36,962 nucleotides of DNA from a virus. Taxonomy: Duplodnaviria > Heunggongvirae > Uroviricota > Caudoviricetes. The stretch lies in the IMG/VR virus record IMGVR_UViG_2534681703_000017; one strand, 5' to 3'. Position 1 is the first letter of the stretch. Each line of letters begins with the position of its first letter. A model generated the notes under the pieces. That model did no database searches. It saw only the letters and a program-made list of their open reading frames with translations, and was not told the DNA's origin. Position numbers and translations under genes: made by a program. Below, in pieces: positions 6,407 through 30,192 of the stretch.

Positions 6407-6472
6407 GTTTTTAATTTTATTTGTATATGGCGTAAACCCGCCGGGGCTGGCTTACGCCTGAATCTGAGGGAT
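6407..6472 (+). repeat. Leader element copy 2: hairpin 6429-6458 plus TGAATCTGAGGGATT
   Basis: Second copy of the 5781-5848 element, immediately upstream of the gene at 6478. Confidence 0.6.
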
Positions 6473-8825: not shown

Positions 8826-9192
8826 AGCCGGTCAGGCGTATCTGGGGTGGGATGATGCCCTTTATCGCCAGACGCTGGCCCGCCTGACCGGTAAAACCAG
8901 CACCACACGCTGCAATCTCGATGAACTGCGCATCATCCGGGAATACATGCACGAACAGGGATTCCCGCGCAAGGCACCCGCTGGTAAAGGTCGCCGCCCT
9001 CGTGTTGCAATGAGCAGAAAATCAGTATTATCCAAAATTGAAGCGTTGCTGGCTGATGCCGGTCGTTCCTGGGCGTATGTAGAAGGACTGGCATCTCACA
9101 TGTATAAGCAACATGTGATCGAATGGCTGACGGATGAACAGCTTTTTGGAGTGATGGTGGCGCTGGTTAAAGATTCAAGGAGACGTAAATGA
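8797..9192 (+). CDS. GemA-like (Mu gp16 family) protein
   Basis: ATG at 8797 preceded by GAGGA; LGWDDALYRQTLARLTGKTS...LRIIREYM resembles GemA/DUF1018 as remembered; the track ORF 8698..9192 extends upstream in the same frame. Confidence 0.5.
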   Translation: MLKKMIGAIKAGQAYLGWDDALYRQTLARLTGKTSTTRCNLDELRIIREYMHEQGFPRKAPAGKGRRPRVAMSRKSVLSKIEALLADAGRSWAYVEGLASHMYKQHVIEWLTDEQLFGVMVALVKDSRRRK

Positions 9193-9527
9193 AAAAACTG
9201 TTATTACTTATTCTGACTTTATGTTTTACAGGGATATCCCATGCTTCTGATTCAGAGGAAGATTTGATCAAAAAAACATTACAGGGCGATTATCAGGCAC
9301 AACGTAATCTGGCTTATTCATACATGAATGGCTGGGATGATATTTCAAAGGATACCATCAGAGGATGCGCTCTCAGGAAGGTTATTCTCTTAACACAAGC
9401 CCAAGCTGACATTGGCGATTATGGAAATGAAGCCATAGATTGTCGAAAAGTGCATCCAACAGATAACCAGAAAGTATGGGAGTATGTCAGAGGATACCTG
9501 GTGTTGATAAACGAGAATAAAAAATAA
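9189..9527 (+). CDS. Secreted (signal-peptide) protein, unknown function
   Basis: N-terminus MKKLLLLILTLCFTGISHA is a classic cleavable signal peptide; sits between the GemA-like and Mor/C-like genes. Confidence 0.5.
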   Translation: MKKLLLLILTLCFTGISHASDSEEDLIKKTLQGDYQAQRNLAYSYMNGWDDISKDTIRGCALRKVILLTQAQADIGDYGNEAIDCRKVHPTDNQKVWEYVRGYLVLINENKK

Positions 9528-9539
9528 TATGAATAACAA

Positions 9540-9563
9540 CCTTCGCAAACGCGGAGGTTTTTT
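9540..9563 (+). terminator. Putative intrinsic terminator: CCTTCGC-AAAC-GCGGAGG (one G-U pair) followed by TTTTTT
   Basis: Stem-loop and T-run read from sequence, directly downstream of the gene ending at 9527. Confidence 0.5.
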
Positions 9564-9569
9564 ATGGTC

Positions 9570-9597
9570 TGTACAGGCGATCATGTATGGCTATAAT
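9570..9597 (+). promoter_or_regulatory. Putative promoter with strong -10 (TATAAT 9592-9597) and weak -35 (TGTACA 9570-9575)
   Basis: Hexamers read from sequence, 16-nt spacer; placed between the terminator and the Mor/C-like gene. A poor -35 would fit an activator-dependent promoter. Confidence 0.35.
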
Positions 9598-9626
9598 AAC
9601 AGTAAGTTACTAACGGAGACGCCATC

Positions 9627-10094
9627 ATGCAGACCTTCAGTGAAACAGATCTTCGCGATGCACAGGCACTGCTACCCGATTCCGTACAGCAACTGATTAG
9701 CGTGATTGGCTTCCCCGCCCTGACCCGGTTGATTTGTTCTTTTGGTGGTGTGACGTTAAGTGGTAAAACCGGCGCACACGCCGAACGCACCGGCGGTGTC
9801 CATGCCCTGTTACATGACGTGCTGACCGAAGACGAAATCAACAAACTGATCCGCTTTCTTGGCGGTGCACCGTTTTACATTCCCCGTTGCGATCATGCGT
9901 TACGTGCCCTGCGTAACACCCGTTTTATGGCTGATTTACAGCAGCATGTAAAAGGCGGATGCTCACACCGGCAGGCGCTGGCACTGCTCTGTCCCCGTTA
10001 CGGCATTTCAGACCGGTACGCATGGCAGCTGATACACCGACGACAAAAACAGACTTCGCTGAAAAGCCCCACCCAGGTGGGGCTTTTTGATTAA
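9627..10094 (+). CDS. Mor/C-family transcription activator
   Basis: 155 aa; FLGGAPFYIPR and C-terminal HTH-like ISDRYAWQLIHRR resemble the Mu Mor/C family (..GGQVYIPRG..) as remembered. Confidence 0.6.
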   Translation: MQTFSETDLRDAQALLPDSVQQLISVIGFPALTRLICSFGGVTLSGKTGAHAERTGGVHALLHDVLTEDEINKLIRFLGGAPFYIPRCDHALRALRNTRFMADLQQHVKGGCSHRQALALLCPRYGISDRYAWQLIHRRQKQTSLKSPTQVGLFD

Positions 10095-10121
10095 TGGGCC
10101 TCAGAAAAAAGGAGACACGAA

Positions 10122-10409
10122 ATGATGCGTTCTGACACCGATATCGACTATGCAGTACTCGGTGAATATACCGCATTTTCAGACAAGGCCCGGGATGCAG
10201 CCCGTCGCCGACATGCTGAAATGTGTAATTTATCCAGTTACCTGGCGAAACAGGCCCAAAGCCCGGAATCAGTAACGAATCATGATGAAGTGCTGTCAGC
10301 CGTAAACAGAATGATTGACGCAGAACGGGAAATGCGTAATGCCGTGGAAAGAGCTAACCTGCTGGCGCGGGCATGTTATAAGCCACCATTAAAACTCGCT
10401 TCTCTTTAA
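10122..10409 (+). CDS. Hypothetical protein (95 aa)
   Basis: Track ORF with AAGGAGA-like RBS upstream. Confidence 0.4.
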   Translation: MMRSDTDIDYAVLGEYTAFSDKARDAARRRHAEMCNLSSYLAKQAQSPESVTNHDEVLSAVNRMIDAEREMRNAVERANLLARACYKPPLKLASL

Positions 10410-10432
10410 CCCATCCAGATAATCAACCTGCC

Positions 10433-10461
10433 GGGGGTGCTGAACTCCCCCAGCAGTACCC
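10433..10461. promoter_or_regulatory. Conserved late-region motif, copy A (GGGGGTGCTGAACTCCCCCAGCAGTACCC)
   Basis: Shares GGGTGCTGAAC plus C-rich tract and CAGTACCC with 17855-17883; lies in the ~190-bp gap upstream of the lysis genes. Confidence 0.45.
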
Positions 10462-10596
10462 ACCACACCAGACCGTTTACCCTGTCCACTCAGACCACAA
10501 GGCACCTTAAGGGATAGCGCCCTGCAAAAGGCTTTTGTGCCTTTGACAGGGTGTTATTTACGGGCCGTCAGTGGCTCAGATTTACAGGAGAAACTC

Positions 10597-10989
10597 ATGT
10601 CTGAACCCTTATCAGGCGGCGGAGCTGTGGCAGTCACCATCGGTGGTGCCAGTGTGTTTGGCCTTCTCACCAATACTGATTTCGGGGTCGTGGTGGGCGC
10701 GTTTGCTGGGGCGCTTTTTGTTGTCACGCAGCAGAAAGAAATCCCGGCATGGCGAATGGCTATTCACCTGCTCGTCGCGTTTGTGGTTGGCGTTCTGGGG
10801 GCTGGCGTGGCTGCGTCACTGATGCAGTGGCTGACCCACTATAACGACAAACCGCTTGATGCATTGTGTGCGGTCGGTGTCTCGGCGTTATCCATCAAGA
10901 TACTGACCTTTCTTTATCAACAGGAAATTTCATCGCTGTTCGGCCTGTTTTCCAGACTGCGCGGCGGAGGGGGTGGAAATGGAAAGTAG
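10597..10989 (+). CDS. Multi-pass membrane protein, putative holin
   Basis: ATG 10597 after CAGGAG; three to four hydrophobic segments; first gene of the lysis cassette. Confidence 0.45.
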   Translation: MSEPLSGGGAVAVTIGGASVFGLLTNTDFGVVVGAFAGALFVVTQQKEIPAWRMAIHLLVAFVVGVLGAGVAASLMQWLTHYNDKPLDALCAVGVSALSIKILTFLYQQEISSLFGLFSRLRGGGGGNGK

Positions 10990-11275
10990 CCTTGCCGGTA
11001 TCGTGAACGTCTGGCTGTGTCTCGCCATTGTGCTGGGGTTGTTTGTATATCGCCGACACGGTGCGGCGCATAAACCGATGATTACCTGGCTGGCGTACTG
11101 GCTGATGCTCGGCTACATCATCATCCCGTTCCGCTGGCTGTCCGGTACATACACGCACTCCAGCTGGCTGGTTGTGGCGCTGAATCTGGTTTTCTGTGCG
11201 CTTATCGTGTGGGCGCACGGGAATTTGTCAAAAATCCTTTCGTTACTGAGGCATCCACATGAAATCAAAAGATGA
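10973..11275 (+). CDS. Membrane protein, putative holin/antiholin
   Basis: 100 aa with about three predicted transmembrane helices, immediately upstream of the endolysin. Confidence 0.45.
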   Translation: MEMESSLAGIVNVWLCLAIVLGLFVYRRHGAAHKPMITWLAYWLMLGYIIIPFRWLSGTYTHSSWLVVALNLVFCALIVWAHGNLSKILSLLRHPHEIKR

Positions 11276-11804
11276 CATTTTTGATGAAGTCCTGGGCAAA
11301 GAAGGCGGTTACGTCAATCACCCGGACGATAAGGGCGGTCCGACCAAATGGGGCATTACGGAAAAAGTTGCCCGCGCCCACGGATACCGTGGCGATATGC
11401 GCAATTTAACCCGCGAACAGGCGCTGGACATCCTTGAAGCTGATTACTGGTATGGCCCGCGATTTGACCAGGTTGCGGCATTATCCCCTGATATTGCCGC
11501 AGAGCTGTGTGATACCGGTGTGAATATGGGGCCATCTGTGGCGTCAAGAATGCTTCAGCGCTGGCTGAATGTGTTCAATCTGCGCGGCAGGATGTATCCC
11601 GATATGGATGCAGACGGACGCATCGGGCCTCGCACCATCAGTGCATTGCGCGCCTTCCTGAATAATCGCGGTCAGGACGGTGAACGGGTGATGCTGACGG
11701 CCCTGAACTGCACGCAGGGGGACTGCTATCTGGAACTGGCAGAGAAACGCGAGGCTAACGAATCGTTTGTTTATGGCTGGCTGAAGGAGCGCGTGGCGGT
11801 ATGA
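11259..11804 (+). CDS. Endolysin, GH108-type lysozyme with C-terminal peptidoglycan-binding domain
   Basis: N-terminal GGYVNHPDDKGGPTKWGIT is the GH108 signature as remembered; no N-terminal signal-anchor. Confidence 0.7.
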   Translation: MKSKDDIFDEVLGKEGGYVNHPDDKGGPTKWGITEKVARAHGYRGDMRNLTREQALDILEADYWYGPRFDQVAALSPDIAAELCDTGVNMGPSVASRMLQRWLNVFNLRGRMYPDMDADGRIGPRTISALRAFLNNRGQDGERVMLTALNCTQGDCYLELAEKREANESFVYGWLKERVAV

Positions 11805-11983
11805 CGCGTCAGTACTGGACCCACAGAACGCCACGTAAAGCCGCGCGCTGTGTTCTGGCCCTGTTTCTGGTGATGTTGCTTCCGGTGGGATGCACAGACA
11901 TTAACAGAGCGGGCCAGCTGTTTGACGCGGCGGCGCAGGTCTGCCGGATTATTGACGGTATCCGGCAGTGTTCGCAGAACTGA
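11801..11983 (+). CDS. Small lipoprotein-like or membrane protein (60 aa), possible spanin component
   Basis: Basic N-terminus, hydrophobic stretch ending LPVGC, three Cys; overlaps the endolysin stop. Lipobox is non-canonical. Confidence 0.3.
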   Translation: MTRQYWTHRTPRKAARCVLALFLVMLLPVGCTDINRAGQLFDAAAQVCRIIDGIRQCSQN

Positions 11984-12056
11984 TTTTTTGAGGTCTGACA
12001 TAGTGAGCATTATCAGATTTACAGAATACAGAGGTTCAGGAGGTGCTGGCGCTGTC

Positions 12057-12209
12057 ATGGTGCTCGCTGAACGCATCACCCATTTTTACCGTCAGTACGG
12101 TACACATGATGGCACGGTCATTGAACTGGATACCGGGAAAAACGTGTATGTTCTTGAAAATCCCGACGAAGTTAAATGTCTGATTGAACAGGATCAGAAG
12201 GACACTTAA
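12057..12209 (+). CDS. Hypothetical small protein (50 aa)
   Basis: ATG 12057 about 13 nt after AGGAGG; in frame with the longer track ORF 11922..12209; start uncertain. Confidence 0.25.
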   Translation: MVLAERITHFYRQYGTHDGTVIELDTGKNVYVLENPDEVKCLIEQDQKDT

Positions 12210-12709
12210 TGGCGTGGTCACAGGATATCAGGGACAAAGTCCGTAACGGGTACATCTTTGACCAGCTTCCGCTGGATATCGTCGCCATGAAGTACGCCGT
12301 GCCGCACGACACCGCGCGGCGCTGGAAAACGCAGGCAATGAAGAACGGCGACGACTGGGACAAGCTGCGGGCCGCGCACGCGCTCGCCGGTGACGGGCTG
12401 GAAAGTGTCGCCCGCACCGTGCTTATCAGTCTGGTGGTGAAGTGTCAGACGACGCTTGAGCGGCTGAACCAGAACCCGGACATCCCGCCGCAGGAGTCCG
12501 TCGAACTGCTGGCGAGTCTGTCTGACAGTCTCAGTAAGGCGGTGGCCAGCAGCAAAAAAATCCTGCCGGAAACCGACCGGCTCGCCACGGCACTGGAAGT
12601 GGTGCAGCGGCTCGGCGCGTTCATCAAGGAGCGTCACCCGGCACAGTATGCCCCGTTTCTTGAGGTGCTCGAAGGCTTCGCTAAAGAGCTTGAGGATAAT
12701 TTCAGTTAA
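12209..12709 (+). CDS. Putative terminase small subunit (Mu gp27-like, DUF1804-like)
   Basis: 166-aa ORF immediately upstream of the large terminase; family assignment from memory and synteny. Confidence 0.45.
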   Translation: MAWSQDIRDKVRNGYIFDQLPLDIVAMKYAVPHDTARRWKTQAMKNGDDWDKLRAAHALAGDGLESVARTVLISLVVKCQTTLERLNQNPDIPPQESVELLASLSDSLSKAVASSKKILPETDRLATALEVVQRLGAFIKERHPAQYAPFLEVLEGFAKELEDNFS

Positions 12710-12715
12710 CCACAG

Positions 12716-12735
12716 CGGCCCGGTTTTCCGGGCCG
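12716..12735 (+). other. Stable hairpin CGGCCCGG-TTTT-CCGGGCCG between the two terminase genes
   Basis: Perfect 8-bp GC stem with 4-nt loop read from sequence; the following sequence is only weakly T-rich. Confidence 0.4.
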
Positions 12736-12743
12736 TCTGATAT

Positions 12744-14402
12744 TTGTATACCAGGTGTGACGTGGCAAAACGTAAACTTTCCATTAAAGAGTTTCAGAGA
12801 AGCTTACAGGAATATATCGCCAACCTCCGCCAGACCATTGAGGCTGAATGTCTGGGGTTCGATGTTAACCCGCAGGCCACACAGGCCCGCCGGGCGGCAG
12901 TCTGCGACCCGGTGACGGGCTACGATTATTTTGTCGAAAACTATTTCCCGCACTACGTCCGCAACCCGGCAAAAAGTGAGCTGCATAAATACCTGTTCAG
13001 CCGTCTGCCACAGGTTGTGGCAAGCCCTGACCCGGAGAACGACGCCATCGCCGCGCCCCGTGGTGAAGCAAAATCCACGCTGGTGACGCAGCTGTTTACC
13101 CTGTGGACCATTATCCGGGCCATTAAACATTACCCGGTCATCATTATGGACAGTATCGACCAGGCTTATCCGATGCTGGAAGCCATCAAGGCTGAACTGG
13201 AATTTAACCCCCGTTTAAAAAACGATTTCCCGGAAGTGTGCGGTCAGGGGCGCGTCTGGCGTATGGGGACCATTGTCACGGCTAACAATATCAAGGTGAC
13301 CGTTGCCGGTAGTGGTAAAAAGCTGCGTGGTCTGCGCCACGGTCCGTACCGTCCTGACCTGGTCATCCTCGACGACATCGAGAACGACGAGATGGTGCGT
13401 AACCCGGAGCAGCGCGACAAGCTGCATGACTGGCTCACTAAAGCCGTGATGCCGCTGGGTGAGGCTGGCGGTAAAACCGATATTATTTATATCGGGACCA
13501 TCCTGCATTACGACTCCGTACTGTCGCGCACGCTGAATAACCCGATGTGGAAAACGGCCCGCTTTAAGGCAGTTATTCAGTGGCCTGCCAATATGAAGCT
13601 GTGGGACGAGTGGGAAGAACTCATCCGCAACAAACAGCCGGAAGCAGCAGAGGCACTTTACCGACAGAACGAAGCTGACATGCTCGCCGGGTCGGTGGTG
13701 TCATGGGCGGCGCGTCCCCTGCTGGCACTGATGAAAATCCGTGTCCGTGACGGTCATGACACCTTTGATTCTGAATACCAGAACGACCCGGTCAGCGGTG
13801 AAGATGCGCTGTTTGCGGGCTGCATTAAGTTCTGGGTTAACCGTCTTGATGAATGGGTGTTTTATGGTGCGGTTGACCCCAGTCTCGGGAAGAAAAACAA
13901 AAACCGTGACCCGTCGGCCATTCTCGTGGGGGGCTTTAACCGCTTTACCGGCATTCTGGATGTGGTTGAAGCCGATATCCGCCGACGACTGCCAAACAAA
14001 CTTATCGAGGACGTGATTAAGTATCAGCGGGAATATCACTGCCTGTGCTGGTCGTTTGAGTCCGTTCAGTTTCAGGAGTTTCTGCGTACCGTGCTGGTTG
14101 AGCGTTCGGCGGCGCTGGGCGTTCCGGTTCCGGCGCTGCCGGTCATCCCGCTGGAGGATAAGGCGCTGCGTATCGAATCCCTTCAGCCGCATATGGCCAA
14201 CGGCCTGATTCGTATCAGTCACACACATCAGACACTGATTGACCAGCTGCGCCACTACCCCAAAGCCGACCACGATGATGGCCCGGACTGTCTGCACATG
14301 CTGTGGACGCTGGCGGTATCGCGTAGCGCAAAATTTCAGATACACACCCCACGCAGCACCGGGCGTGACCGTGGCGGGCGTTTTGGTTCAGGAGGATGGT
14401 AA
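12744..14402 (+). CDS. Terminase large subunit (Mu gp28-like)
   Basis: 552 aa; Walker A-like motif around PRGEAKST; position before the portal. Start uncertain (TTG 12744 or in-frame GTG 12762). Confidence 0.75.
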   Translation: MYTRCDVAKRKLSIKEFQRSLQEYIANLRQTIEAECLGFDVNPQATQARRAAVCDPVTGYDYFVENYFPHYVRNPAKSELHKYLFSRLPQVVASPDPENDAIAAPRGEAKSTLVTQLFTLWTIIRAIKHYPVIIMDSIDQAYPMLEAIKAELEFNPRLKNDFPEVCGQGRVWRMGTIVTANNIKVTVAGSGKKLRGLRHGPYRPDLVILDDIENDEMVRNPEQRDKLHDWLTKAVMPLGEAGGKTDIIYIGTILHYDSVLSRTLNNPMWKTARFKAVIQWPANMKLWDEWEELIRNKQPEAAEALYRQNEADMLAGSVVSWAARPLLALMKIRVRDGHDTFDSEYQNDPVSGEDALFAGCIKFWVNRLDEWVFYGAVDPSLGKKNKNRDPSAILVGGFNRFTGILDVVEADIRRRLPNKLIEDVIKYQREYHCLCWSFESVQFQEFLRTVLVERSAALGVPVPALPVIPLEDKALRIESLQPHMANGLIRISHTHQTLIDQLRHYPKADHDDGPDCLHMLWTLAVSRSAKFQIHTPRSTGRDRGGRFGSGGW

Positions 14403-14405
14403 TTA

Positions 14406-16001
14406 ATGGCACAGCTTGTTGATATTTGCGGACGCCCGCTGAAACGTGAGGCACTCAAAACCACGCAGTCGGTCAGAGTGGCGGAACGGCTGCGCATTTA
14501 TCCAGACCACCCGTCGCGTGGTCTGAACATCAGAAAACTGCCGCGCATTCTGGAAGCTGCCGAACGCGGTTATCTTCCGGCGCAGGCGATGCTGTTTGCG
14601 GATATGGAAGAGCGTGATGGTCATCTGTTCGCCGAGATGGAAAAGCGCAAAAAAGCGTTGCTGACGCTGGACTGGTCGGTGGAGCCGCCCCGCAATGCCT
14701 CGAAGGCAGAAAAGGAGCTGACTGCCGCCGTGGATGAGTGGCTGCACGGCATCCCGGACATGGAGGACATCATCCTCAACGGGATGACCAGTGTCGGTTA
14801 TGGCTTCAGTTGTCAGGAAATCAGCTGGGCGTTCGTGGATAAAACGTGGTTACCGGATGCGGTGACGCTGCGCCCGCATAACTGGTTTATTACCCTGCCG
14901 GAACACAATGACGAACTCCGGCTGGATGACGGCAACCGTGGGGAAGATGGTAAGGACGGCTCTGCACTGTGGCCGTTCGGCTGGCTGGTTCATCGTTACA
15001 ACGCCAGGTCGGGATTTCTGGGTTCATCCGGCCTGTTCCGCGTACTGGTCTGGCCGTATCTGTTTAAAAACTTCGCGCTGCGTGATATGGCGGAGTTTCT
15101 GGAGATTTACGGCCTTCCGGCGCGCATTGCGTACTATGCACAGGGCACCAGTGACGAGGACCGGGACAACATTCTTGAGGCGCTGGTCAATCTGGGTCAT
15201 GAAGCGGTGGCAGCCCTGCCGCAGGGTAACGAAATTGAGTTCAAGGAGGCCGCGTCCGGCGGACCGGAGGCGTTCATGTCGATGGTGGAATGGGCAGAGC
15301 GCACCACCTCAAAAGTGATTCTGGGCAGTACGCTGACCAGCCAGGCCGACGGTAAAACCTCCACCAACGCACTGGGTAATGTCCATAACGAGGTCAGGCA
15401 CGACATTCTGGCCGCCGATGCGCGCCAGCTGTCCGGCATGTTCAGCAGCCTGATACAGATGATGTCCAGCCTCAACGGCTGGCAGGATATCCCGCCACGC
15501 CGTCTGCCGCGACTGGTGTTTGATGTGCAGCAGGAAGCCGACATTAAGGGCGTGGCGGAAGCCGTCAGCGTGCTGGTCAACAATGTGGGAATGAAGGATA
15601 TCCCGGTGTCGTGGGTACGCAAAAAAACCGGTATCCCCACCCCGAAAGACGGCGAAGAGGTACTGGTGCCGGTGGCACAGCGTCTCCCTGTGCAGGCGGG
15701 CCTCAGCCAGTTGCGTGAGCGGCTGAATGTCGTCGCACTCAGTCAGCAGGACAACGGGGAGGACGACCCGGCACAACGCGCCATCGACCGGGCAGAACTT
15801 CCGGCAGAGGCCATCGCGCAGGGGATGAACGAACTGGTGGCCCCGCTGGTGCAGGCCATACAGGAAGGCCGGGATGCAGACGAGGCTATGAACGTACTGG
15901 CGGAAGCATGGCCGGAACTGCCGGATGAAACGCTGCGGCAGTTGCTGACACAGGCATTCTTTGTGGCGGATATCTGGGGGCGACTGAATGCCGAAAGCTG
16001 A
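14406..16001 (+). CDS. Portal protein (Mu gp29-like, DUF935)
   Basis: 531 aa following the large terminase; synteny and size. Confidence 0.75.
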   Translation: MAQLVDICGRPLKREALKTTQSVRVAERLRIYPDHPSRGLNIRKLPRILEAAERGYLPAQAMLFADMEERDGHLFAEMEKRKKALLTLDWSVEPPRNASKAEKELTAAVDEWLHGIPDMEDIILNGMTSVGYGFSCQEISWAFVDKTWLPDAVTLRPHNWFITLPEHNDELRLDDGNRGEDGKDGSALWPFGWLVHRYNARSGFLGSSGLFRVLVWPYLFKNFALRDMAEFLEIYGLPARIAYYAQGTSDEDRDNILEALVNLGHEAVAALPQGNEIEFKEAASGGPEAFMSMVEWAERTTSKVILGSTLTSQADGKTSTNALGNVHNEVRHDILAADARQLSGMFSSLIQMMSSLNGWQDIPPRRLPRLVFDVQQEADIKGVAEAVSVLVNNVGMKDIPVSWVRKKTGIPTPKDGEEVLVPVAQRLPVQAGLSQLRERLNVVALSQQDNGEDDPAQRAIDRAELPAEAIAQGMNELVAPLVQAIQEGRDADEAMNVLAEAWPELPDETLRQLLTQAFFVADIWGRLNAES

Positions 16002-17154
16002 CGATGTTGACCTGGGGTATGCGTACACCCTGAAACCGGAAGAAGCGATTAAGTATTTCGAAAGCAAGGGATACGTTATCGGCTTCCGCTGGCACGATGT
16101 GAAGGACATCGCCAGTGCCCGGGCGTTCACGGTGGCGGGCGTGCTGAAACTGGATGTGCTGAAGGATATCCGTGATGGACTGACGGCGGCACTGGCTGAC
16201 GGCGGGACGTTCCGGGAGTTTGCTGCACAACTGGAACCACTGCTGGAATCAAAAGGCTGGCTGGGTAAAAAACTGATTGTGGACGAGGACACCGGCGAAC
16301 TGCATGGCAGGCAGCTGACGCCGCGCCGGTTGCGTACGCTATTCGATACCAATATTCAGTCGTCATATAACGCCGGGCGTTATCAGCAACAGATGGCGAA
16401 CGTGGCTGACCGGCCTTATTTTGAGCGCGTGGCGGTGATGGACCTTCACACGCGCCCGAAACACGCCGCCCTGAACGGTTTTACCGCCCGGGCGGATGAC
16501 CCTGTCTGGGAGTATTTCTACGCGCCGGACGGATACGGATGCCGCTGCCGTATCCGTGCGCGTTCGGCGTCTGATGTGGAGAAATACGGCCTGACGGTGC
16601 AGAGCAGCGAGGGGCGACTGGTTGAGGTTGAACAGGAATATGGCCAGCCGGGCCAGACCATCAGAACGATGGGTCTGAAGATGCCGGATGGCTCCGTGTA
16701 TACCGCCGACCCGGGCTTCGGATTTAATCCCGGTCGGGTGGCATGGCAGCCGGAACTGGAAAAATATGATTACCGTAGCGCCCGCCAGTATGTCACCGGC
16801 ACCCTGACCGGGCCGGATTTTGCCCGGGGACTGGCGAACGTCAGCAAACTGGATGCGCGCCAGCGATATCCGCTGGCCATCCGTTCACCGGAACAGGTCG
16901 CTGCCACGGGCGCTGCACGGCAGACGGTAAACCTGACGGCTGACGTCATGAAGCGCCTCAGTGCAACAGACACGCCCCCGACCGCCGCCGACTATGTGCT
17001 GATGCAGCAGACCATCGAACGGGCGGAGCATGTCACGCAGGACGGCAACGCGTGGCGGTATGCGTTACAGTCAGGCGACCGCTGGTCGGTGGTGACGGTT
17101 GAGGATGACGTGCTGACAGACTGGGTTATGCAGGACACACCGGAGGCATCATGA
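15988..17154 (+). CDS. Head morphogenesis protein (Mu F / gp30-like)
   Basis: 388 aa after the portal, start overlapping the portal stop; Mu F position. Confidence 0.7.
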   Translation: MPKADDVDLGYAYTLKPEEAIKYFESKGYVIGFRWHDVKDIASARAFTVAGVLKLDVLKDIRDGLTAALADGGTFREFAAQLEPLLESKGWLGKKLIVDEDTGELHGRQLTPRRLRTLFDTNIQSSYNAGRYQQQMANVADRPYFERVAVMDLHTRPKHAALNGFTARADDPVWEYFYAPDGYGCRCRIRARSASDVEKYGLTVQSSEGRLVEVEQEYGQPGQTIRTMGLKMPDGSVYTADPGFGFNPGRVAWQPELEKYDYRSARQYVTGTLTGPDFARGLANVSKLDARQRYPLAIRSPEQVAATGAARQTVNLTADVMKRLSATDTPPTAADYVLMQQTIERAEHVTQDGNAWRYALQSGDRWSVVTVEDDVLTDWVMQDTPEAS

Positions 17155-24334: not shown

Positions 24335-26603
24335 TTTCAAAGTTGGCATGACCCTGACTGCGAAGGACGAAGCCTCGCAGGTTCTGGAAAAGGGGCAAAA
24401 ACAGGTTATCAAAGCCACCGAAGGTGTAACAAAGGCGACACGGAAGGCAGGCGCAGAGCAGAAGCGTACCGAGCAGGAAAGCATTAACAGCACGAAAAAG
24501 GCCGCAAAAGAGATACAGCGTGCCGCTCGTGCCCGGGAAACGCTCGGTATTCGTGCAGAGCGTGAGATCCAGCGTGAAATTTATCTGACGGTTGCCAGTT
24601 ATAACCGTCTGGCTCGTGCCGGTTTTGAATCTGCGCAGGAGCAGGAGCGCGCCATGCAGGCCACCCGGGAAAAAGCCCGGGCACTCAAGCGCGAACTGGA
24701 TGGCGTTACTCAGGCTCAGATGAAGATGGCGAAAACGCCTGTTATCCCTGAACCGGGTCGTTTTGCCCGTGCAGCTGCATTTGGCGGGAATGCCGTGACA
24801 ATAGGTGGTGGTATTGCAGCAGGTGCTGCCATTATGGCGCAGCCGGTCAAAAAGCAGATGAGCTACGAACGCCAGCTGGCAATGATGGCCAATACCGCCT
24901 TCAGTGATGGCGGGCTGGAGGGGCGCAGGGCTGGTCTTGAGCAGATGAAAAGCAGCATCCGTAACGCGGTGACCTATGGCGGCGGTACGAAAGAAGACGC
25001 AGCCGAAACGCTGGATGCCCTGCTGAAAGACGGCATTTCATTTGAAACAGCCAACAAGTGGCTGCCCGAACTGATGAAATACGCCACTGCTTCAGGCGCA
25101 TCTGCAACAGACCTGGCCAAGGTGATGATTAAGGGCAAAAAGACCTTTGGATTCAGGGATGAAGATATTTCCACCGTTCTGAATATGGCGATTGCAGCGG
25201 GCAAAGAAGGCAGCTTTGAACTGAACGACATGGCCCGCTGGTTATCCCAGCAAATGGGCGCTGCGTCAGCTGCGGGGATGAAAGGCAAGGATGATTTCGT
25301 CAAGATTCTGGCGCTGAATGAAGCTTCCGCCATCACGGCTGGCAGTAGTGATGAAGCTGGAAATAACGTGGTTAACCTGCTGGCAAAACTGACCAGTAAG
25401 GATATTGAAACAGCGGCTGCGGGGATAAAATACAACGGTAAGGGAATCGACTTTTCCGGCACGCTGACTGAAGCACGCGAGAATGGACTTAATCCGATAG
25501 ACGCGCTGTCCAGCCTGATAGACAAAATTGTTGCCAGTGATAAACGCTATCAGGAGCTGCAAAAGAAACTGGCATCCGCCCGGGACAAAGGCGAGCAGAC
25601 GGCTGTTTATGATTCGATGGCAAAACTCCTTGAAGGCTTTGGTGTCGGAAAGCTGGTTGCAGACCGTCAGGCGTTGATGGCGTTGTTAGCCTACCGTAAC
25701 AACCCGGAATACCGGAAAAAAGTTGAAGACGCGATTAATCAGCAGCGCACCCTGCCAGAAGGTCAGCGCGCCGGGGATGTGGATTTTAAATTCATATCAG
25801 ACACGAATGATTTTAAAACCGGGCAGGCTAAAAACACGCTTGAATTTTCACAAATGGATGGTGTGAAAAAACTGGCGGATGCATCCGGTACTGTGGCCGA
25901 TGCCATAAGCTGGGCGGGTGAAAAATTTCCGGGGCTGACCACAGCAGTGGTGGGTGCCACGACCGCCATTGAAGCGATGACCGCAGCGGCTCTGACATGG
26001 GCCGGGATCAAAATCCTGACCGGAGGTAAACCCGGTGGCAAGGCTGGCGAGGTTGTCGGTGATGTAATTGAAAACACGGTCAAAAAAGGCAAAGGATTTA
26101 AATTCCCCGGTATTGCCGGTGGCCTGCTTTCTTTAGGTGGCACTGTTACGGCACTGGCCACCGCAACCAGTCCGGAAGAAGATGCCGCCGTCGAAGGAAG
26201 CGAGGAGCGCTGGAAAAATATACGGGCTAAATATCCTCAGTGGCTGATTGATGCTGCCCGTGAAAAATATCAGCCGTGGTGGCAGTTTGGCGAAGGTTAC
26301 TCAACAGAAAACGAGAAATGGATCCAGCAGTATCTTGACGAACTGAAAAAAACTGGGGTTATCGCCGGTGATTCTCTGCCGACACCAGAACAAGTCCGAC
26401 AGCAAGCCGGAATGGCAGCGTCTGAAACGGCATCAAAGCAACCCGGACGCATCACCCAGCCGGAATACCTCACGCACTGGGGACCACCTGCCAGCCCCAT
26501 TAATTTCACCACACAACTGGTGCTCGATGGTCAGGTCGTGGCGGAAGCGGTGAATAAATACAACCTTCAGGACGGCAACAGAGGCACGGGAGGAACTTAC
26601 TGA
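24324..26603 (+). CDS. Tail tape measure protein
   Basis: 759 aa, Ala/Gly/Lys-rich, positioned after tube and chaperone. Confidence 0.75.
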   Translation: MAGNFKVGMTLTAKDEASQVLEKGQKQVIKATEGVTKATRKAGAEQKRTEQESINSTKKAAKEIQRAARARETLGIRAEREIQREIYLTVASYNRLARAGFESAQEQERAMQATREKARALKRELDGVTQAQMKMAKTPVIPEPGRFARAAAFGGNAVTIGGGIAAGAAIMAQPVKKQMSYERQLAMMANTAFSDGGLEGRRAGLEQMKSSIRNAVTYGGGTKEDAAETLDALLKDGISFETANKWLPELMKYATASGASATDLAKVMIKGKKTFGFRDEDISTVLNMAIAAGKEGSFELNDMARWLSQQMGAASAAGMKGKDDFVKILALNEASAITAGSSDEAGNNVVNLLAKLTSKDIETAAAGIKYNGKGIDFSGTLTEARENGLNPIDALSSLIDKIVASDKRYQELQKKLASARDKGEQTAVYDSMAKLLEGFGVGKLVADRQALMALLAYRNNPEYRKKVEDAINQQRTLPEGQRAGDVDFKFISDTNDFKTGQAKNTLEFSQMDGVKKLADASGTVADAISWAGEKFPGLTTAVVGATTAIEAMTAAALTWAGIKILTGGKPGGKAGEVVGDVIENTVKKGKGFKFPGIAGGLLSLGGTVTALATATSPEEDAAVEGSEERWKNIRAKYPQWLIDAAREKYQPWWQFGEGYSTENEKWIQQYLDELKKTGVIAGDSLPTPEQVRQQAGMAASETASKQPGRITQPEYLTHWGPPASPINFTTQLVLDGQVVAEAVNKYNLQDGNRGTGGTY

Positions 26604-27952
26604 TGGGCTGGGCTGAAAACCTGCAAAACGCCTCCTTTCGTGGCGTTCAGTTTGATGTACTGAACACGGATGAACAAATCAGCCGCGACCATGCGGTCTA
26701 TGAATACCCGTTTGTTGACGGGGCGGATTTGCACGACCTCGGGCGCAAGGCGCGACCGTTCCGCATGACGGCGTTCCTGTGGGGGGAGTATTACGAATAT
26801 AAACTCGAAAAGCTGATCGCCGCCCTGGACGAAGGCGGCGATGGTGAGCTGATTCACCCGGTTTATGGCTCCGTTCCGTCGGTGATTGTGACCGGCTACA
26901 GCATTCGCCATGACGCAGAAAGCCCGGACAGCTGCACCATCGACATGAGCTTTCTGGAGAATCGCACCGGCAGCGCGTTGTTCAGCACCCCGTTACCGGA
27001 GCTGTTTGCACAGCAGTTATTTGAAGAACTGGATAAGTTACTGGCACAGTTAAGCGAATTATTTGACGCTGTTACGGCCCCTTTAAAGACCATTAACAGC
27101 GTGATTAAAAAAATCCAGACGGTGCGTGCCACGCTGGTAAATACCCTGCTGACGTTCAAAAGTGATTCATTCTCCACAGTCGATAATGTTGTGTCACTGG
27201 CCAGCGAACCCGGAAAGTTTATCGGCGGGCTGGCAGAGGTGCTGGAAATCCACACGTCAGATGTCGGGCACGCGGTGCCGGTGCTGGAACGTACTGATTC
27301 CGCCACCACGACCGGGCTGACCGGAGAAGACAGCGTCGCCAGTTCTGCGACCGTGATGACCTGCTGGAATGAGGTGATGGCAGATATGGATGAGCTGGTC
27401 GCGCTGCCGGTCGCGCTGGTCAGCGGTGATAAAACGCCGTCTGTGGCACTTCCGCCGGATGCGTCCGTGGAAGACGTGCAGGATGTGAAAGCGGCTTATG
27501 CGGTTCTGGCGGCCTCAGAGCTGGCCAGCGTGGCGACGGCGATACTGTCCGATGAGGCCCAGTCAGAACAACTTATACCGGCGGATATCGGGCGACTGGT
27601 CGGGGATGTGCGCACCCGCTTACAGGCCGCCATCACGCTGTTCCGTGAACGCTATGAAGGCGAACGCGAACGGATAACCGAAACCGCATCACCACTGGGG
27701 CTGATGTACCCGGAAATCATTCAGAGCATGAAGAACGTGGCGGCATCCGTGCAGGATGTCGGCCTGCTGGTTCTGTCACGCCGCCCACCGCTGACGCAGA
27801 AACAGGTGCAGGCGGACAGCTGTCTGCTGTTGCTGGCGTGGCAGTGGTACGGTGATTACAGCCGTGCGGCAGAGCTGCAACGTCTGAACCCGCAGCTGCG
27901 TGCCCCGAACAACATAACCGCCGGGATGGTGATTAATGCCTACGCAAAATAA
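26603..27952 (+). CDS. DNA circularization protein (Mu N-like)
   Basis: N-terminus MGWAENLQNASFRGVQFDV matches the conserved W..L..ASFRGV.F start of the family as remembered; start overlaps the tape measure stop. Confidence 0.65.
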   Translation: MGWAENLQNASFRGVQFDVLNTDEQISRDHAVYEYPFVDGADLHDLGRKARPFRMTAFLWGEYYEYKLEKLIAALDEGGDGELIHPVYGSVPSVIVTGYSIRHDAESPDSCTIDMSFLENRTGSALFSTPLPELFAQQLFEELDKLLAQLSELFDAVTAPLKTINSVIKKIQTVRATLVNTLLTFKSDSFSTVDNVVSLASEPGKFIGGLAEVLEIHTSDVGHAVPVLERTDSATTTGLTGEDSVASSATVMTCWNEVMADMDELVALPVALVSGDKTPSVALPPDASVEDVQDVKAAYAVLAASELASVATAILSDEAQSEQLIPADIGRLVGDVRTRLQAAITLFRERYEGERERITETASPLGLMYPEIIQSMKNVAASVQDVGLLVLSRRPPLTQKQVQADSCLLLLAWQWYGDYSRAAELQRLNPQLRAPNNITAGMVINAYAK

Positions 27953-29138
27953 CGACGACAAAATCAGACTGGTCATTGCCGGAAGGTCGCATTCTGACTG
28001 GAGCAGTTATCGTATTGACAGCGATTTCCTGAAAGCCGCCGACGGCTGGCAGCTTCAGCTGGGACTGCCTGAAAAGGTGTTCCCGGCGGATATCGTCCGG
28101 GGCGCGCCGGTCCGGTTGCAGGTGGGAGACGAGACGGTGCTCAGTGGTCGCGTGGACAGCGTGCGCCGCAGTGTATCCCGTCAGAGCTGCACGCTGACCC
28201 TGTCCGGGCGTGATGATGCCGCCATCCTGGTGGACTGTGCCGCACCGGTGTTCAGCGCCAACCAGCTGACACTTGATGAGGTCATCGACAGGATAGTCAG
28301 ACCGCTGGGGATACAGCGCATCCGTATTCAGGCGTCCGGTGTGTCACGTAATGACAAGGTCGTTATAGAGCCGGGGATGCGTGCGTGGGATGCACTGGCT
28401 AAAGCTGCCGCCGGTCGCGGCTTATGGCCGTGGTTTGAGCCTGACGGGACGCTGGTTGTGGGTGGCCCTGACTACACCACCACGCCGGTGGATACACTGA
28501 TTCTGAAGCTGGATGGCACCGGGAACAACGTGATGGAGCTGGACGATACCCGGTCCATTAACGGCTGTTTCTCCGAGCTGACGGTGCTGGCCCAGAGCCA
28601 CGCCCGCCGCGCAGACAGCAAGAAACAGGTGGCCGTGGTGCCGCTGGATATCTGGAACGAGGACGGCAGCGTGCGCACGTTATCCAGGCAGGGCAGCGGT
28701 AATACAGGCAGTGGTCAGACAGGCATTCATAACATGAAAGCCGTGGCCACCGACCCCACCGTGGATTATTACCGCCCGCAGATTATCACCCAGGGCGACA
28801 CCAGTAACATGGAGCAGGTGAACTGGCGCGCAAAAAAAATGATGAGTGATGCCCGCCTGTCGGGGCTGGATATCGTCGCACTGGTTGCAGGTCATCGCAC
28901 GGCGGATGGTGTTCTGTGGCAGCCCGGCCAGCGGGTGCGGATTGTCAGCGAACTCCACGGCATTGATGCCATCTTTTTCCTGATGGGGCGTGAGTTCAGC
29001 GGAGGCCGGAACGGGCAGACAACCCGGCTTCGCTTTAAGGAGGACGGCGTGTGGATACCTGACGCCTTCCCGCGCGAGAAGAAACGCCATCGCAAAAAGA
29101 AAAAAGAGGTCGCCATTGTTAAGGTCTGGGAGAAATGA
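27936..29138 (+). CDS. Baseplate hub protein (Mu gp44 / P2 gpD-like)
   Basis: 400 aa in the baseplate block; synteny. Confidence 0.6.
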   Translation: MPTQNNDDKIRLVIAGRSHSDWSSYRIDSDFLKAADGWQLQLGLPEKVFPADIVRGAPVRLQVGDETVLSGRVDSVRRSVSRQSCTLTLSGRDDAAILVDCAAPVFSANQLTLDEVIDRIVRPLGIQRIRIQASGVSRNDKVVIEPGMRAWDALAKAAAGRGLWPWFEPDGTLVVGGPDYTTTPVDTLILKLDGTGNNVMELDDTRSINGCFSELTVLAQSHARRADSKKQVAVVPLDIWNEDGSVRTLSRQGSGNTGSGQTGIHNMKAVATDPTVDYYRPQIITQGDTSNMEQVNWRAKKMMSDARLSGLDIVALVAGHRTADGVLWQPGQRVRIVSELHGIDAIFFLMGREFSGGRNGQTTRLRFKEDGVWIPDAFPREKKRHRKKKKEVAIVKVWEK

Positions 29139-29788
29139 TGTGGGACAAGGTTAATCAGCGCGTACAGCAGGCACTGGCCGCCGTTCGCCAGGCATTCAGG
29201 GTGGTGACCGGTACGGTGGATAGTTCGACCAAAGTACAGCTACTTCAGCTGAGCGGGCTGGCAGGCGAACAGCTGGACGGTGCGGAGTATTTTCAGCATT
29301 ACGGCCTCACCACATCCCCGCCGCCCGGCTCAATGGGTATTGCCGTTCCGCTGAACGGTAATACCTCCCATACCGTCGTCGTGGCCACCGAGCACGGCGC
29401 ATATCGCCTGACGGAACTGAAACCCGGCGAGGTGGCCCTGTATACCGACGAAGGCGCGAAAATTGTGCTGAAGCGCGGACGGGTTATTGAGCATGAATGT
29501 GATATTTTTCGCGTGAAATGCAAACGCTATGAGGTTGAGGCAGAGGAAAGCGCCGCATTCACGACACCGTTACTGACGGCCTGCGATAAGCTGACGGTGG
29601 AAGGTAAAATCACCGGCAACGGTGGCATGGCCATCAGTGGGGGCAAGAAATACGCCGCCACCTTTGAAGGCAACATCAACCATGTGGGTGGTGTGATTAC
29701 CTCCGTTGACGTCACCATTAATGGCGTTAAAATCGGAACGCACAAACACCCGACCCCACACGGCATGTCTGACACGCCGGTTAATTAA
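29135..29788 (+). CDS. Baseplate spike/assembly protein (Mu gp45 / gpV-like)
   Basis: 217 aa, overlapping start; synteny. Confidence 0.55.
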   Translation: MMWDKVNQRVQQALAAVRQAFRVVTGTVDSSTKVQLLQLSGLAGEQLDGAEYFQHYGLTTSPPPGSMGIAVPLNGNTSHTVVVATEHGAYRLTELKPGEVALYTDEGAKIVLKRGRVIEHECDIFRVKCKRYEVEAEESAAFTTPLLTACDKLTVEGKITGNGGMAISGGKKYAATFEGNINHVGGVITSVDVTINGVKIGTHKHPTPHGMSDTPVN

Positions 29789-29803
29789 GTGCTGAACACC
29801 CTC
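29789..29803. promoter_or_regulatory. Conserved late-region motif, copy C (GTGCTGAACACCCTC)
   Basis: Exact 15-mer shared with 17858-17872; sits in the 53-nt gap starting right after the gp45-like stop, 38 nt before the next ATG. Confidence 0.4.
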
Positions 29804-29841
29804 ACCTGATTCTGACCTGTCCATGCTGCCAGACTGGCGGC

Positions 29842-30192
29842 ATGGACCAGACGATTTCACCTGCAACCGGCGACTACGAACGCCGCCGGATTTATACACT
29901 CCATAACTCGGTTTATCTGCGACTGGCGACACCGCTTGGCAGTTACTGGGCGGATACGTCGCTGGGGTCACGCCTGCACGAACTGAAGCGGGAAAAAGAC
30001 GTTTCCCGTGTTCACAGGCTGGCGGCGCAGTATGCCAGCCAGGCACTTCAGCCCCTGCTTGATGACGAGCGGGCAAAATCCATTACCGTTGACACGAAAG
30101 CGGGCCAGCGCGGCTGGCTGTTGCTGTTAATCACCGTCACGGATAACGCGGGCACACCGCAGACGTTTGAACACCCTGTGAGGATTATGTAA
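29842..30192 (+). CDS. Baseplate protein (Mu gp46 / GPW-like)
   Basis: 116 aa before the baseplate J-like gene. Confidence 0.55.
   Translation: MDQTISPATGDYERRRIYTLHNSVYLRLATPLGSYWADTSLGSRLHELKREKDVSRVHRLAAQYASQALQPLLDDERAKSITVDTKAGQRGWLLLLITVTDNAGTPQTFEHPVRIM

Follow-up and report, generated by a model that had tools for sequence, protein, structure and literature searches.

Three motif copies ahead of late genes

The window, which is the whole stretch of 36,962 nucleotides from a tailed virus (Caudoviricetes; IMG/VR record IMGVR_UViG_2534681703_000017) that we analysed, contains exactly three copies of a motif, at 10435-10461, 17856-17882 and 29787-29813. All of them are on the + strand and intergenic, lying in the gaps that precede the holin, protease I and gp46 genes. 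These copies (A, B and C), the elements next to them and a Mor/C-family activator gene are arranged as follows:

9538-9597, + strand: terminator-like hairpin and near-consensus sigma-70 promoter just upstream of the activator gene, read from the sequence
9627-10094, + strand: Mor/C-family activator gene, 155 aa (Pfam Mor 29.1 bits, cut-off 24.9)
10435-10461, + strand: copy A, proposed P_lys, GGGTGCTGAACTCCCCCAGCAGTACCC (matrix 25.5 bits; core dyad 10439-10454, GCTGAACTCCCCCAGC)
10478-10483, + strand: -10-like hexamer TACCCT of site A, position conserved in intergenic enterobacterial sites
10490-10596, + strand: predicted 5' leader of the lysis operon, ~107 nt (fold dG -44.5, z -4.6)
17856-17882, + strand: copy B, proposed P_I, GGGTGCTGAACACCCTCCACAGTACCC (matrix 24.0 bits; core dyad 17860-17875, GCTGAACACCCTCCAC)
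17899-17904, + strand: -10-like hexamer CATCAT of site B, placed by the hexamer-to-ATG position across I-gene upstream regions
29787-29813, + strand: copy C, proposed promoter for gp46 and genes downstream (core dyad 29791-29806, GCTGAACACCCTCACC)
29819-29847, + strand: 13-bp hairpin GTCCATGCTGCCA-gac-TGGCGGCATGGAC (fold dG -23.8, z -5.5)
29830-29835, + strand: -10-like hexamer CAGACT of site C (predicted start 29842, the A of the gp46 ATG)

The motif sequences of the preliminary description were all found in place, and its third copy was confirmed. The 15-mer GTGCTGAACACCCTC occurs exactly at 17858-17872 and 29789-29803, and copy A is mismatched to it at 2 of 15 positions. To call this repeat very unlikely by chance was an overstatement, since at least one exact repeat was present in 47% of shuffles; the window itself has six further isolated exact repeated 15-mers. 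What makes the motif significant is that the full pattern is longer than this, exists in a third copy, keeps to one strand and to intergenic places, and is conserved. The 27-nt pattern GGGTGCTGAACNCCCNCNNCAGTACCC had 2 matches in the window and 0 in 100 shuffles, and a weight matrix scan of the window returned three sites only, at 24-30 bits (next best 11.8, shuffle maximum 13.9), which is mildly circular in that the 33 enterobacterial sites used for training included the window's own three. Of the earlier distances to the start codons (about 145, 31 and 38 nt), the 38 nt at C stands if counted from the 15-mer, but the gap from the motif end is 135 nt at A (ATG 10597) and 29 nt at B (ATG 17912). 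If the motif start is taken instead, B and C are almost equally far from the ATG (56 and 55 nt).

A 16-bp imperfect dyad, GCTGAA-N4-yTCAgC (also written GCTGA-N6-TCAgC), forms the conserved core; it spans motif positions 5-20 and is centred between positions 12 and 13. Its family form is GCTGAA-N4-TTCAGC, and its form in the window is GCTGAAC-N-CCC-..., with weak promoter-proximal half-sites that match TTCAGC at 4, 3 and 4 of 6 positions in A, B and C. The perfect dyad AGGGTG-CTGAA-CACCCT noted previously does occur but is limited to the E. coli lineage, while the dyad that is conserved is GCTGA-N6-TCAgC. A weak -10-like hexamer (YAnnnT) occupies motif positions 44-49 (TACCCT, CATCAT and CAGACT, the latter two being poor -10 hexamers), and this position is conserved in relatives. 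No -35 element could be read from the sequence of the three sites, where positions 21-26 match TTGACA at 2 of 6 positions at most, and none of the three is a full match to a canonical sigma-70 promoter. With 31.5 bp from the dyad centre down to the first base of the hexamer, the dyad would be located at -43.5, a value that rests on the predicted +1, whereas the 31.5-bp distance is independent of it.

Conservation of layout and spacing

The same fixed layout recurs in relatives that belong to nine or more further enterobacterial genera and in more distant Mu-like contigs. A motif of the same family is found at three places: between the Mor-family gene and the lysis or first late genes, in the G-I gap, and ahead of gp46. 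Conservation at equivalent positions in related prophages, on which the reading as promoters had been staked beforehand, thus held across genera: the three places are kept in Salmonella, Xenorhabdus, Photorhabdus, Morganella, Trabulsiella, Buttiauxella, Intestinirhabdus and many metagenomic Mu-like contigs, and the sites hold position while their flanks diverge. A Salmonella relative with a 66% identical activator (L038) retains GTGCTGAAC at both gaps, and the other six genera just named retain sYGCTGAACCCCCTCAaC. The place of site B is occupied in L038, Xenorhabdus, Photorhabdus, Morganella and Trabulsiella. Site C begins within the TAA stop codon of gp45 and is the best match to the family matrix (29.9 bits); homologous gaps of ~52-55 nt precede gp46 in enterobacterial relatives and several other lineages. 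Every lineage reuses a dyad of its own at all late sites of a phage: TGCTGAAGCCCTTCAGCT occurs twice in L197, GCGGAAGCSCTTCCGCCT three times in L166 and L177, GACGAACCSCTTCGTC twice in L202 and AGCGACGnnCGTCGC twice in L193. These dyad classes co-vary with the helix-turn-helix classes of the Mor-family proteins.

Spacing to the hexamer is similarly constant. Among 95 unique matches to a loose pattern, 59 have A and T at hexamer positions 2 and 6 (motif positions 44-49), and a hexamer is found only after a shift of +1 in three others and of -1 in another three. These 65 hexamer-bearing matches cover all identified intergenic late-gene sites except one in L055, and matches that we read as chance, mostly on the opposite strand or deep within genes, have no hexamer. 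Relative to the A of the ATG, the dyad symmetry profile of 43 unique I-gene and 46 unique gp46 upstream regions peaks at -43.5/-44.5, and the -10 signal of many lineages has its only peak 6-7 nt ahead of the I and gp46 ATG. A -10 score above 2 was found solely 6 (56%) or 7 (37%) nt before the ATG of I; at gp46, it was found at 6-8 nt in 79% and at other offsets in at most 7% each, though part of this signal could be hairpin-derived because A(-11) and T(-7) are the closing pair of the hairpin described below. At A-type sites, the ATG follows 78-162 nt after the motif start, and the predicted transcription start of site A itself is ~10488-10492.

RNA structures beside the motif

Two RNA structures are found near the motif copies. 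The predicted lysis leader, which is strongly structured and ends with the Shine-Dalgarno sequence AGGAG ahead of the holin ATG, has two compensatory changes among relatives and lacks 64 nt in one of them (L140). The loop of the gp46 hairpin and its immediate surroundings contain the -10 hexamer, and the 3' arm of the hairpin contains the gp46 AUG together with the second codon. In 18 in-register homologues, 88.8% of cells pair compared to ~30% with the partner slid, both sides have changed in 5 of 13 pairs, and G.U wobbles fall on the + strand. Judging from this covariation, the gp46 ATG is locked in an RNA hairpin that would be formable only by read-through transcripts starting upstream. A point against activator-dependent promoters is a sigma-70-like match inside gp45 (29706-29733), although of the 11 sequences compared just the window, L078 and L083 retain it.

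It is improbable, in our view, that the motif itself is an RNA hairpin or protein-binding element of polycistronic late transcripts that would control processing, stability or translation of the downstream gene, on the model of the Com target before Mu mom. The structures nearby are genuine, read-through from upstream would transcribe sites B and C, and a DNA dyad and an RNA hairpin resemble each other in sequence; a 6-bp hairpin is possible for copy B and an interrupted stem of ~10 bp for copy A. Yet the motif regions fold no better than shuffles (z -1.7, -1.0 and -0.9), and inner-dyad position 12 switches between T, A and C among close relatives, which makes or breaks the inner pair. The halves GCTGAA/CTCAAC of Xenorhabdus and Photorhabdus pair at 4 of 6 positions only and this asymmetric sequence is kept at every site, so that sequence appears to be read rather than structure, and motif spacing is fixed to the -10-like hexamer and not to the start codon with its variable distance at A-type sites. 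Rfam covariance models gave no gathering-score match anywhere in the window. The RNA-level role that the preliminary description had left open is therefore unlikely for the motif, even if a hairpin does adjoin it at gp46.

A candidate activator and the resemblance to Mu late promoters

A single ORF of the window matches the Mor profile, 9627-10094, in agreement with the one Mor/C-family protein seen previously. A profile of its homologues matches Mu C (solved structure 9L0X, E 9e-4) over a region that takes in the FYIP strand, the helix-turn-helix and the C-terminal Q..LF, and fits Mu C better than Mor (E 0.78). The protein ends with ...PTQVGLFD and thus carries, at sequence level, a clamp-binding-type motif like that of the Mor/MuC family (C-terminal consensus QPDLF, in general QL[SD]LF; PMC12867686); its Q..LF is nearly invariant in an alignment of 15 sequences.

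We consider it likely that the three sites are activator-dependent sigma-70 late promoters bound by a dimer of this protein, which is the most likely candidate binder. Like Mor/C promoters, they come with an activator of the family in the same phage, a -10 without a -35, and the spacing of a 16-bp dyad. The original idea of a late promoter/activator site is supported by position conservation, the fixed hexamer spacing, the Mu C geometry and the single Mor ORF. Each motif copy would form the upstream half of such a promoter, with an activator dimer occupying the dyad and, by analogy to Mu C, letting host RNA polymerase open promoters that are otherwise silent. Promoter A would serve lysis, terminase, portal and head-assembly genes through a structured leader of ~107 nt with a normal ribosome-binding site, promoter B would serve protease/scaffold I, the major head protein and tail genes, and promoter C would serve gp46 and the remaining baseplate and tail-fibre genes.

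Slightly less probable than an RNA element is a different reader, either an ECF-type sigma with GAAC as its -35 or another DNA-binding protein of phage or host. The GAAC of the motif does resemble the core of the -35 in ECF-type promoters, other small putative regulators (an ANR-family and a gp16/GemA-type protein) are annotated in a close relative, and the Mor-family protein is a binder that we infer; however, an ECF-type -10 would need motif positions 28-35, the least conserved stretch, and would leave the conserved hexamer at 44-49 unexplained. The same annotation contains no sigma-factor gene, the geometry is specifically of Mor/C type, and the motif class shifts with the helix-turn-helix class of the Mor-family protein. 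Least probable, by a narrow margin, are relics of recombination or module junctions (short conserved borders where Mu-like phages swap blocks of genes) or of a duplicated segment, which by themselves would regulate nothing: chance does produce isolated repeated 15-mers, all three copies are at borders of functional modules, and in an E. coli clade of 86% identity the DNA 5' of site A is unrelated and homology restarts exactly at the motif's 5' edge, but motif, hexamer and spacing persist across genera with flanking genes only 40-60% identical, the same layout exists in lineages with wholly different dyads, relics would explain neither the 31.5-bp spacing nor the helix-turn-helix co-variation, and the roles of promoter and module boundary are mutually compatible.

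If the sites are activator-dependent promoters, B and C probably start on the A of the ATG and would produce leaderless I and gp46 mRNAs, a reading based on the hexamer-to-ATG gap of 6-7 nt, the dyad at -43.5 from the ATG, and the missing Shine-Dalgarno sequence of I. For site B, the predicted start (17911-17912) coincides with the A of the protease I ATG at 17912, the start codon used in the annotation of a close E. coli relative. I is the only late gene without anti-Shine-Dalgarno pairing (dG +0.7), and gp46 has a weak GGCGG right before its ATG (dG -4.8). The inefficiency of leaderless translation in E. coli is an odd fit with structural genes. Among temperate phages, lambda cI transcribed from PRM has a leaderless mRNA, and the present case resembles it in that transcription is predicted to begin at the A of the AUG and no Shine-Dalgarno sequence is present. 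Here, in contrast, late structural and assembly genes behind activator-dependent promoters are concerned, the leaderless state is a prediction, and the same AUG would be internal in read-through transcripts and hairpin-sequestered at gp46.

In Mu, the binding site of C is a 16-bp imperfect dyad with its centre at -43.5 of the late promoters lys, I, P and mom, which have a -10 element and no -35 (PMC2582627), and the site consensus is TTAT-N5-6-ATAA (PMC12867686). The phage studied here, a Mu-like E. coli prophage, shares with Mu a Mor/C-family activator encoded just upstream of the lysis genes, sigma-70 promoters as predicted with a -10 hexamer, no -35 and such a dyad at -43.5, and the C-terminal Q..LF of clamp-binding type (PMC12867686). 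Promoters likewise precede the lysis block and occupy the G-I gap, as the preliminary description had it when equating the first two copies with Plys and PI. In our own reading of the Mu Plys and PI sequences, the ATAA half-sites fit the same spacing to TAGACT and CAAACT; this proximal half is the better conserved one in Mu, as opposed to the distal half-site here. Recognition is of a GCTGAA-N4-TTCAGC-like sequence and not of TTAT-N5-6-ATAA, and since TTAT and ATAA halves are absent from all three window sites, these have a different specificity and are not Mu C sites. The third promoter is also placed differently, before gp46 and two genes downstream of the P homologue (27936) rather than at the position of Mu PP; gp45 and gp46 overlap in the annotation of Mu. 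A fourth, mom-type site was not found by the weight-matrix scan of the window, and so the lys and I positions of the Mu C regulon have counterparts here and P and mom do not. At Mu PI, alignment apparently gives a leader of ~26 nt with AGGA before I, whereas the ATG is at the predicted +1 here.

The window has a single activator gene and no cascade of Mor and then C. Mor at Mu Pm is similar in its protein family and in a dyad-symmetry site located directly ahead of a poor -35 region, and in relatives from Xenorhabdus, Photorhabdus and Morganella an additional copy of the motif, CACTGAACCCCTTCAACC, lies between two Mor-family genes and looks like an equivalent of Pm. No such site precedes the activator gene of the window, where the weight-matrix scan found no activator-type motif at 9538-9597; this region instead contains the terminator-like hairpin (9538-9559; a 9-bp stem, then TTTTAT) and the sigma-70 promoter (9570-9597; TGTACA-16-TATAAT, 10 of 12 promoter matches).

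P2 Ogr and P4 Delta are small zinc-finger activators that use a dyad upstream of -35-less late promoters heading several late operons. The small phage activator, the dyad and the -35-less promoters at the heads of late operons are alike in our case, but the activator family is unrelated, sequence and position of the dyad differ, and no Ogr/Delta homologue was seen in the annotation of the window. On our best reading, the kind of control proposed here is an expected and already known one, and its recognition sequence is new.

Three motif copies in a Mu-like prophage

The late region in question belongs to a complete-looking Mu-like prophage of E. coli, for which gene order was derived from the annotation of a close relative together with Pfam. 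Repressor and ner come first, followed by transposase A and B, the early genes, the Mor-family gene (9627-10094) and a 95-codon ORF; the genes after these run from two holins over endolysin, terminase, portal, F, G, protease I and the major head protein to the tail genes.

Features of the late promoter analysis (window positions; strand where assigned)
9627-10094, + strand: gene of the single Mor/C-family protein (the activator, 155 aa)
10435-10461, + strand: motif copy A (site A), before the holin genes
10478-10483: -10-like hexamer of site A, TACCCT
17856-17882, + strand: motif copy B (site B), before I
17899-17904: -10-like hexamer of site B, CATCAT
17912-19027: protease I gene
29135-29788: gp45
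29787-29813, + strand: motif copy C (site C), before gp46
29830-29835: -10-like hexamer of site C, CAGACT
29842-30192: gp46, followed by gp47 and tail fibres

Relatives were drawn from E. coli genomes, viral contigs and GTDB genomes (L-numbers below designate these related sequences). Of 5,426 complete E. coli genomes, 87 contain DNA at least 80% identical to window 9000-13000, a part of the late region. The E. coli relatives fall into two clades of around 97% and 86% identity; EPEC E2348/69 carries one related prophage copy. A megablast search of window 9000-19000 against deposited phages gave no matches. Several other elements were seen along the sequence: a GC-rich terminator-like hairpin (12715-12736) between the DUF1804 gene and terL, a spot at which an additional DNA methyltransferase gene is present in many relatives; an exact direct repeat of 38 bp (5804-5841 and 6429-6466), set in a similar element of around 65 nt in front of two early-region genes, whose sequence includes a hairpin (GGCGTAA...TTACGCC) with a Shine-Dalgarno sequence and ATG behind it; and two exact direct repeats of 41 bp (34188-34228/35367-35407) and 20 bp (34269-34288/35448-35467), both at 1179-nt spacing within the 994-codon ORF 33237-36221, which suggest an internal duplication of around 393 codons in a tail-fibre-like gene.

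The preliminary description had placed a motif before three late gene blocks, and the sequences are indeed found at these coordinates. A 27-nt pattern occurs twice in the window and never in shuffles, and a 15-mer is repeated exactly at 17858 and 29789, with two mismatches to it in copy A. The accompanying argument that such a repeated 15-mer would be very unlikely by chance was too strong, given that an exact repeat appears in 47% of shuffles and that the window holds six other isolated repeated 15-mers. The significance of the motif is carried by features other than this repetition. A weight matrix built from 33 enterobacterial sites picks out exactly three sites in the window, all intergenic and on the + strand, at 24-30 bits (next best 11.8 bits; shuffle maximum 13.9).

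Geometry of the proposed promoters and its conservation

With motif positions counted from the first G of GGGTGCTG (position 1), the intergenic late-gene sites of the window and its relatives display at positions 44-49, or shifted by one nucleotide, a -10-like hexamer whose second base is A and whose sixth is T; the single exception is in L055. Core matches that we read as chance, mostly on the opposite strand or deep in genes, do not have the hexamer, which makes them an internal control. A good -10 score is found 6-7 nt before the ATG in 93% of I upstream regions (43 unique sequences from many lineages) and 6-8 nt before it in 79% of gp46 upstream regions (46 unique sequences), compared to at most 7% at other offsets, and the symmetry profile of these regions peaks at -43.5/-44.5 if the A of ATG is taken as +1. 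Positions 5-20 make up the conserved core, an imperfect dyad of 16 bp that is most symmetric as GCTGAA-N4-TTCAGC (e.g., in L197) and is centred 31.5 bp upstream of the hexamer. The Mu C site is also a 16-bp imperfect dyad, centred at -43.5, and Mu late promoters have -10 but no -35 hexamers, with a footprint from about -30 to -55 (PMC2582627).

All three sites are kept in close relatives, but this says little on its own because their flanks are conserved as well. The 86% clade is an informative exception: up to copy A its DNA has no relation to the window on the 5' side, and homology restarts at the motif. More distant homologues of the activator (44-66% identity) were found in Salmonella, Xenorhabdus, Photorhabdus, Morganella, Trabulsiella, Buttiauxella, Intestinirhabdus, Tenebrionibacter and Edwardsiella, and in most of the genera with long enough contigs the motif, in the form sYGCTGAAC-CCCC-TCAaC-CGCTCCC, lies 3' of the activator gene and its small neighbour and 5' of the lysis genes, with a second copy in the G-I gap. 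Homologues of gp46 in viral contigs span several lineages at 53-97% identity, and the gap after the gp45 stop codon, in enterobacterial relatives and several other lineages, measures 52-55 nt and opens with a lineage-specific motif. The "perfect dyad" AGGGTG-CTGAA-CACCCT of the preliminary description did not hold up as the conserved dyad: it is confined to the E. coli lineage, and position 12 is T, A or C among close relatives so that the inner pair is formed or broken, and this inner dyad is therefore not under selection. An outer dyad of GGGTGCTG and CAGTACCC was also considered and is restricted to the E. coli lineage.

We regard it as very improbable that the motif itself acts at the RNA level, because the motif regions fold no better than shuffles (z -1.7, -1.0 and -0.9), non-complementary motif positions are conserved, and Rfam gave no family matches. 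Readings of GAAC and GGCA as ECF-sigma or sigma-54 elements fit neither in spacing nor in conservation. The 3' end of gp45 contains a sigma-70-like match (29706-29733; TTGACG-16-TAAAAT, 10/12). Out of eleven sequences compared, only L078, L083 and the window itself have it, and it probably arose in the coding sequence by coincidence.

The Mor-family protein and its co-variation with the dyad

The window contains exactly one Mor-family ORF. A profile of its homologues matches the solved Mu C with an E-value of 9e-4 across the FYIP strand, the helix-turn-helix and the C-terminal Q..LF, compared to a poorer match with Mor (E 0.78); a single-sequence PDB search with the activator reached Mu C at only E 0.58. 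The protein ends in QVGLFD, a type of ending reported as clamp-binding motif in the Mor/MuC family (PMC12867686). Searching the PDB by Foldseek with the predicted monomer model (pLDDT 81.6) returned only weak hits to oestrogen receptor helices, all with E >0.5, that we judged meaningless; with Mor being an intertwined dimer, a monomer may not be a suitable query.

The late sites of each lineage are seen to share a candidate dyad of its own: an identical 18-mer stands at two sites in L197, L166 and L177 carry GCGGAAGCSCTTCCGCCT in three copies, and L202, L193, L181 and L190/L192 have their own dyads in two copies each. Dyad class and helix-turn-helix class of the Mor-family proteins go together: LCPxYGISDRxxW occurs with GCTGAA, LALRYEVTDRQVLNIL with CCGAAT, and LRRQYRLSQPQIYQII of Mu C with TTAT...ATAA. 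Such co-variation is the strongest computational argument that a Mor-family protein would read the motif as DNA. By this comparison, the promoter geometry of Mu C/Mor (dyad at -43.5 and no -35 hexamer) is maintained across many lineages while the recognised sequence varies with the activator's helix-turn-helix. The late-promoter reading of the preliminary description is essentially right: sites A, B and C are best read as three activator-dependent late promoters of the known Mu C type with a new recognition sequence.

The predicted system differs from that of Mu in several respects. Its recognition sequence is of the GCTGAA-N4-TTCAGC type rather than TTAT-N5-6-ATAA as for Mu C (PMC12867686), its third promoter precedes gp46 and not the P homologue, and, unlike in Mu, no fourth site was found when the whole window was scanned with the weight matrix. 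In our reading of the Mu sequence, Plys and PI fit the spacing seen in the window once TAGACT and CAAACT are taken as the partners of their ATAA half-sites, and alignment suggests that around 26 extra nucleotides, including AGGA, separate the -10 element of Mu PI from the I ATG. In the G-I gap (17780-17850), an AT-rich stretch TTTTTAAAAGGGTTTTAAAAACGGTTTTATTT aligns with Xenorhabdus and with the surroundings of the gyrase cut site annotated in Mu (Mu 17879), and may be the equivalent of a strong gyrase site beside the I promoter.

Instead of a Mor-then-C cascade of the Mu type, the window has a single activator gene. A motif-type site was looked for before this gene and none was found; in place of a Mor-type site, a terminator-like hairpin and a near-consensus sigma-70 promoter (TGTACA-16-TATAAT) lie at 9538-9597. 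The same arrangement is present in the Edwardsiella contigs L041 and L042, while Tenebrionibacter L049 has a motif copy directly before its single Mor-family gene. Two Mor-family genes, around 0.6 kb upstream of the lysis-side site, are found in L044, L047, L051, L052, L159, L186 and L194 (Xenorhabdus, Photorhabdus and Morganella), of which L159, L186 and L194 have a variant motif, CACTGAACCCCTTCAACC, between the two; these two-gene relatives with an extra motif look like the Mor-Pm-C cascade of Mu.

Predicted starts on the ATG and structured RNA

For I and gp46, the hexamer and the dyad centre as two independent markers both point to the A of the ATG as +1, and at the I site of the window the predicted +1 falls within one nucleotide of this A. 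I is the sole late gene without anti-Shine-Dalgarno pairing (dG +0.7, compared to -4.0 to -11.5 for the others, with gp46 at -4.8). An in-frame ATG at 17903 (inside the -10 hexamer) and a GTG at 17858 (inside the motif) were rejected as I starts in view of frame loss in other genera, where the equivalent GTG stands 53 nt from the I ATG and the equivalent upstream ATG, in Trabulsiella/L162, 8 nt from it. Gene callers may consequently over-extend I, given that the in-frame GTG opens the ORF to 17858 and no ribosome-binding site serves as a guide.

The start of gp46 is covered by a 13-bp hairpin (29819-29847; GTCCATGCTGCCA-gac-TGGCGGCATGGAC; dG -23.8, z -5.5) whose 3' arm consists of the ATG and second codon and whose loop region holds the -10-like hexamer. 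Across 18 homologues, which were picked for being in register (a selection to be kept in mind), 88.8% of cells pair as compared to around 30% with the partner slid, and 5 of the 13 pairs are changed on both sides. In several cases the change yields a G.U pair on the + strand alone, such as GTCTGTG opposite CATGGAC, which points to RNA rather than a DNA palindrome. The -10 reading calls for caution at gp46, where the hairpin is closed by the same A and T that mark the hexamer. The orientation of this pair is invariant, however, which suits a -10 element better than it suits a stem, and where I sites have larger loops, it is the ATG and not the hairpin that the A/T spacing follows. Shorter hairpins adjoin or include the I-gene ATG in many lineages.

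The gp46 hairpin can form only in transcripts that start upstream. In the simplest reading, AUGs without a Shine-Dalgarno sequence would be kept closed in read-through mRNA and exposed in promoter-proximal leaderless mRNA. We therefore put forward, at slightly less than an even chance, a model in which the I and gp46 promoters of this and many other Mu-like phages start on the A of the AUG and leave the first gene leaderless, while the same AUG in read-through transcripts lacks a Shine-Dalgarno sequence and is buried in a covarying hairpin whose loop region is the -10 element at the DNA level, so that promoter choice would set translatability. No mention of such a coupling, or of leaderless late genes, in Mu or Mu-like phages was found in the literature searched.

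The predicted leader of the lysis operon (10490-10596) is also strongly structured (dG -44.5, z -4.6). It contains two interleaved helices with one compensatory change each among E. coli relatives (AAGGCAC/GTGCCTT to AAGACAC/TTGTCTT and CCCTG/CAGGG to CCCGG/CCGGG), which could form a pseudoknot or alternative folds; 64 nt of this leader are absent in L140.

Our analysis yields a concrete recognition sequence (GCTGAA-N4-TTCAGC type) and maps of three proposed promoters for a Mu-like prophage. The pairs of dyad and activator in different lineages constitute a natural data set for how this protein family reads DNA, given the existing structures of Mor and C transcription complexes. The predicted leaderless starts and the promoter-overlapping hairpin are the parts most deserving of experiments: if true, they would be a compact way to tie translation to the promoter of origin, and late structural genes with leaderless mRNA would be unusual for an enterobacterial phage.
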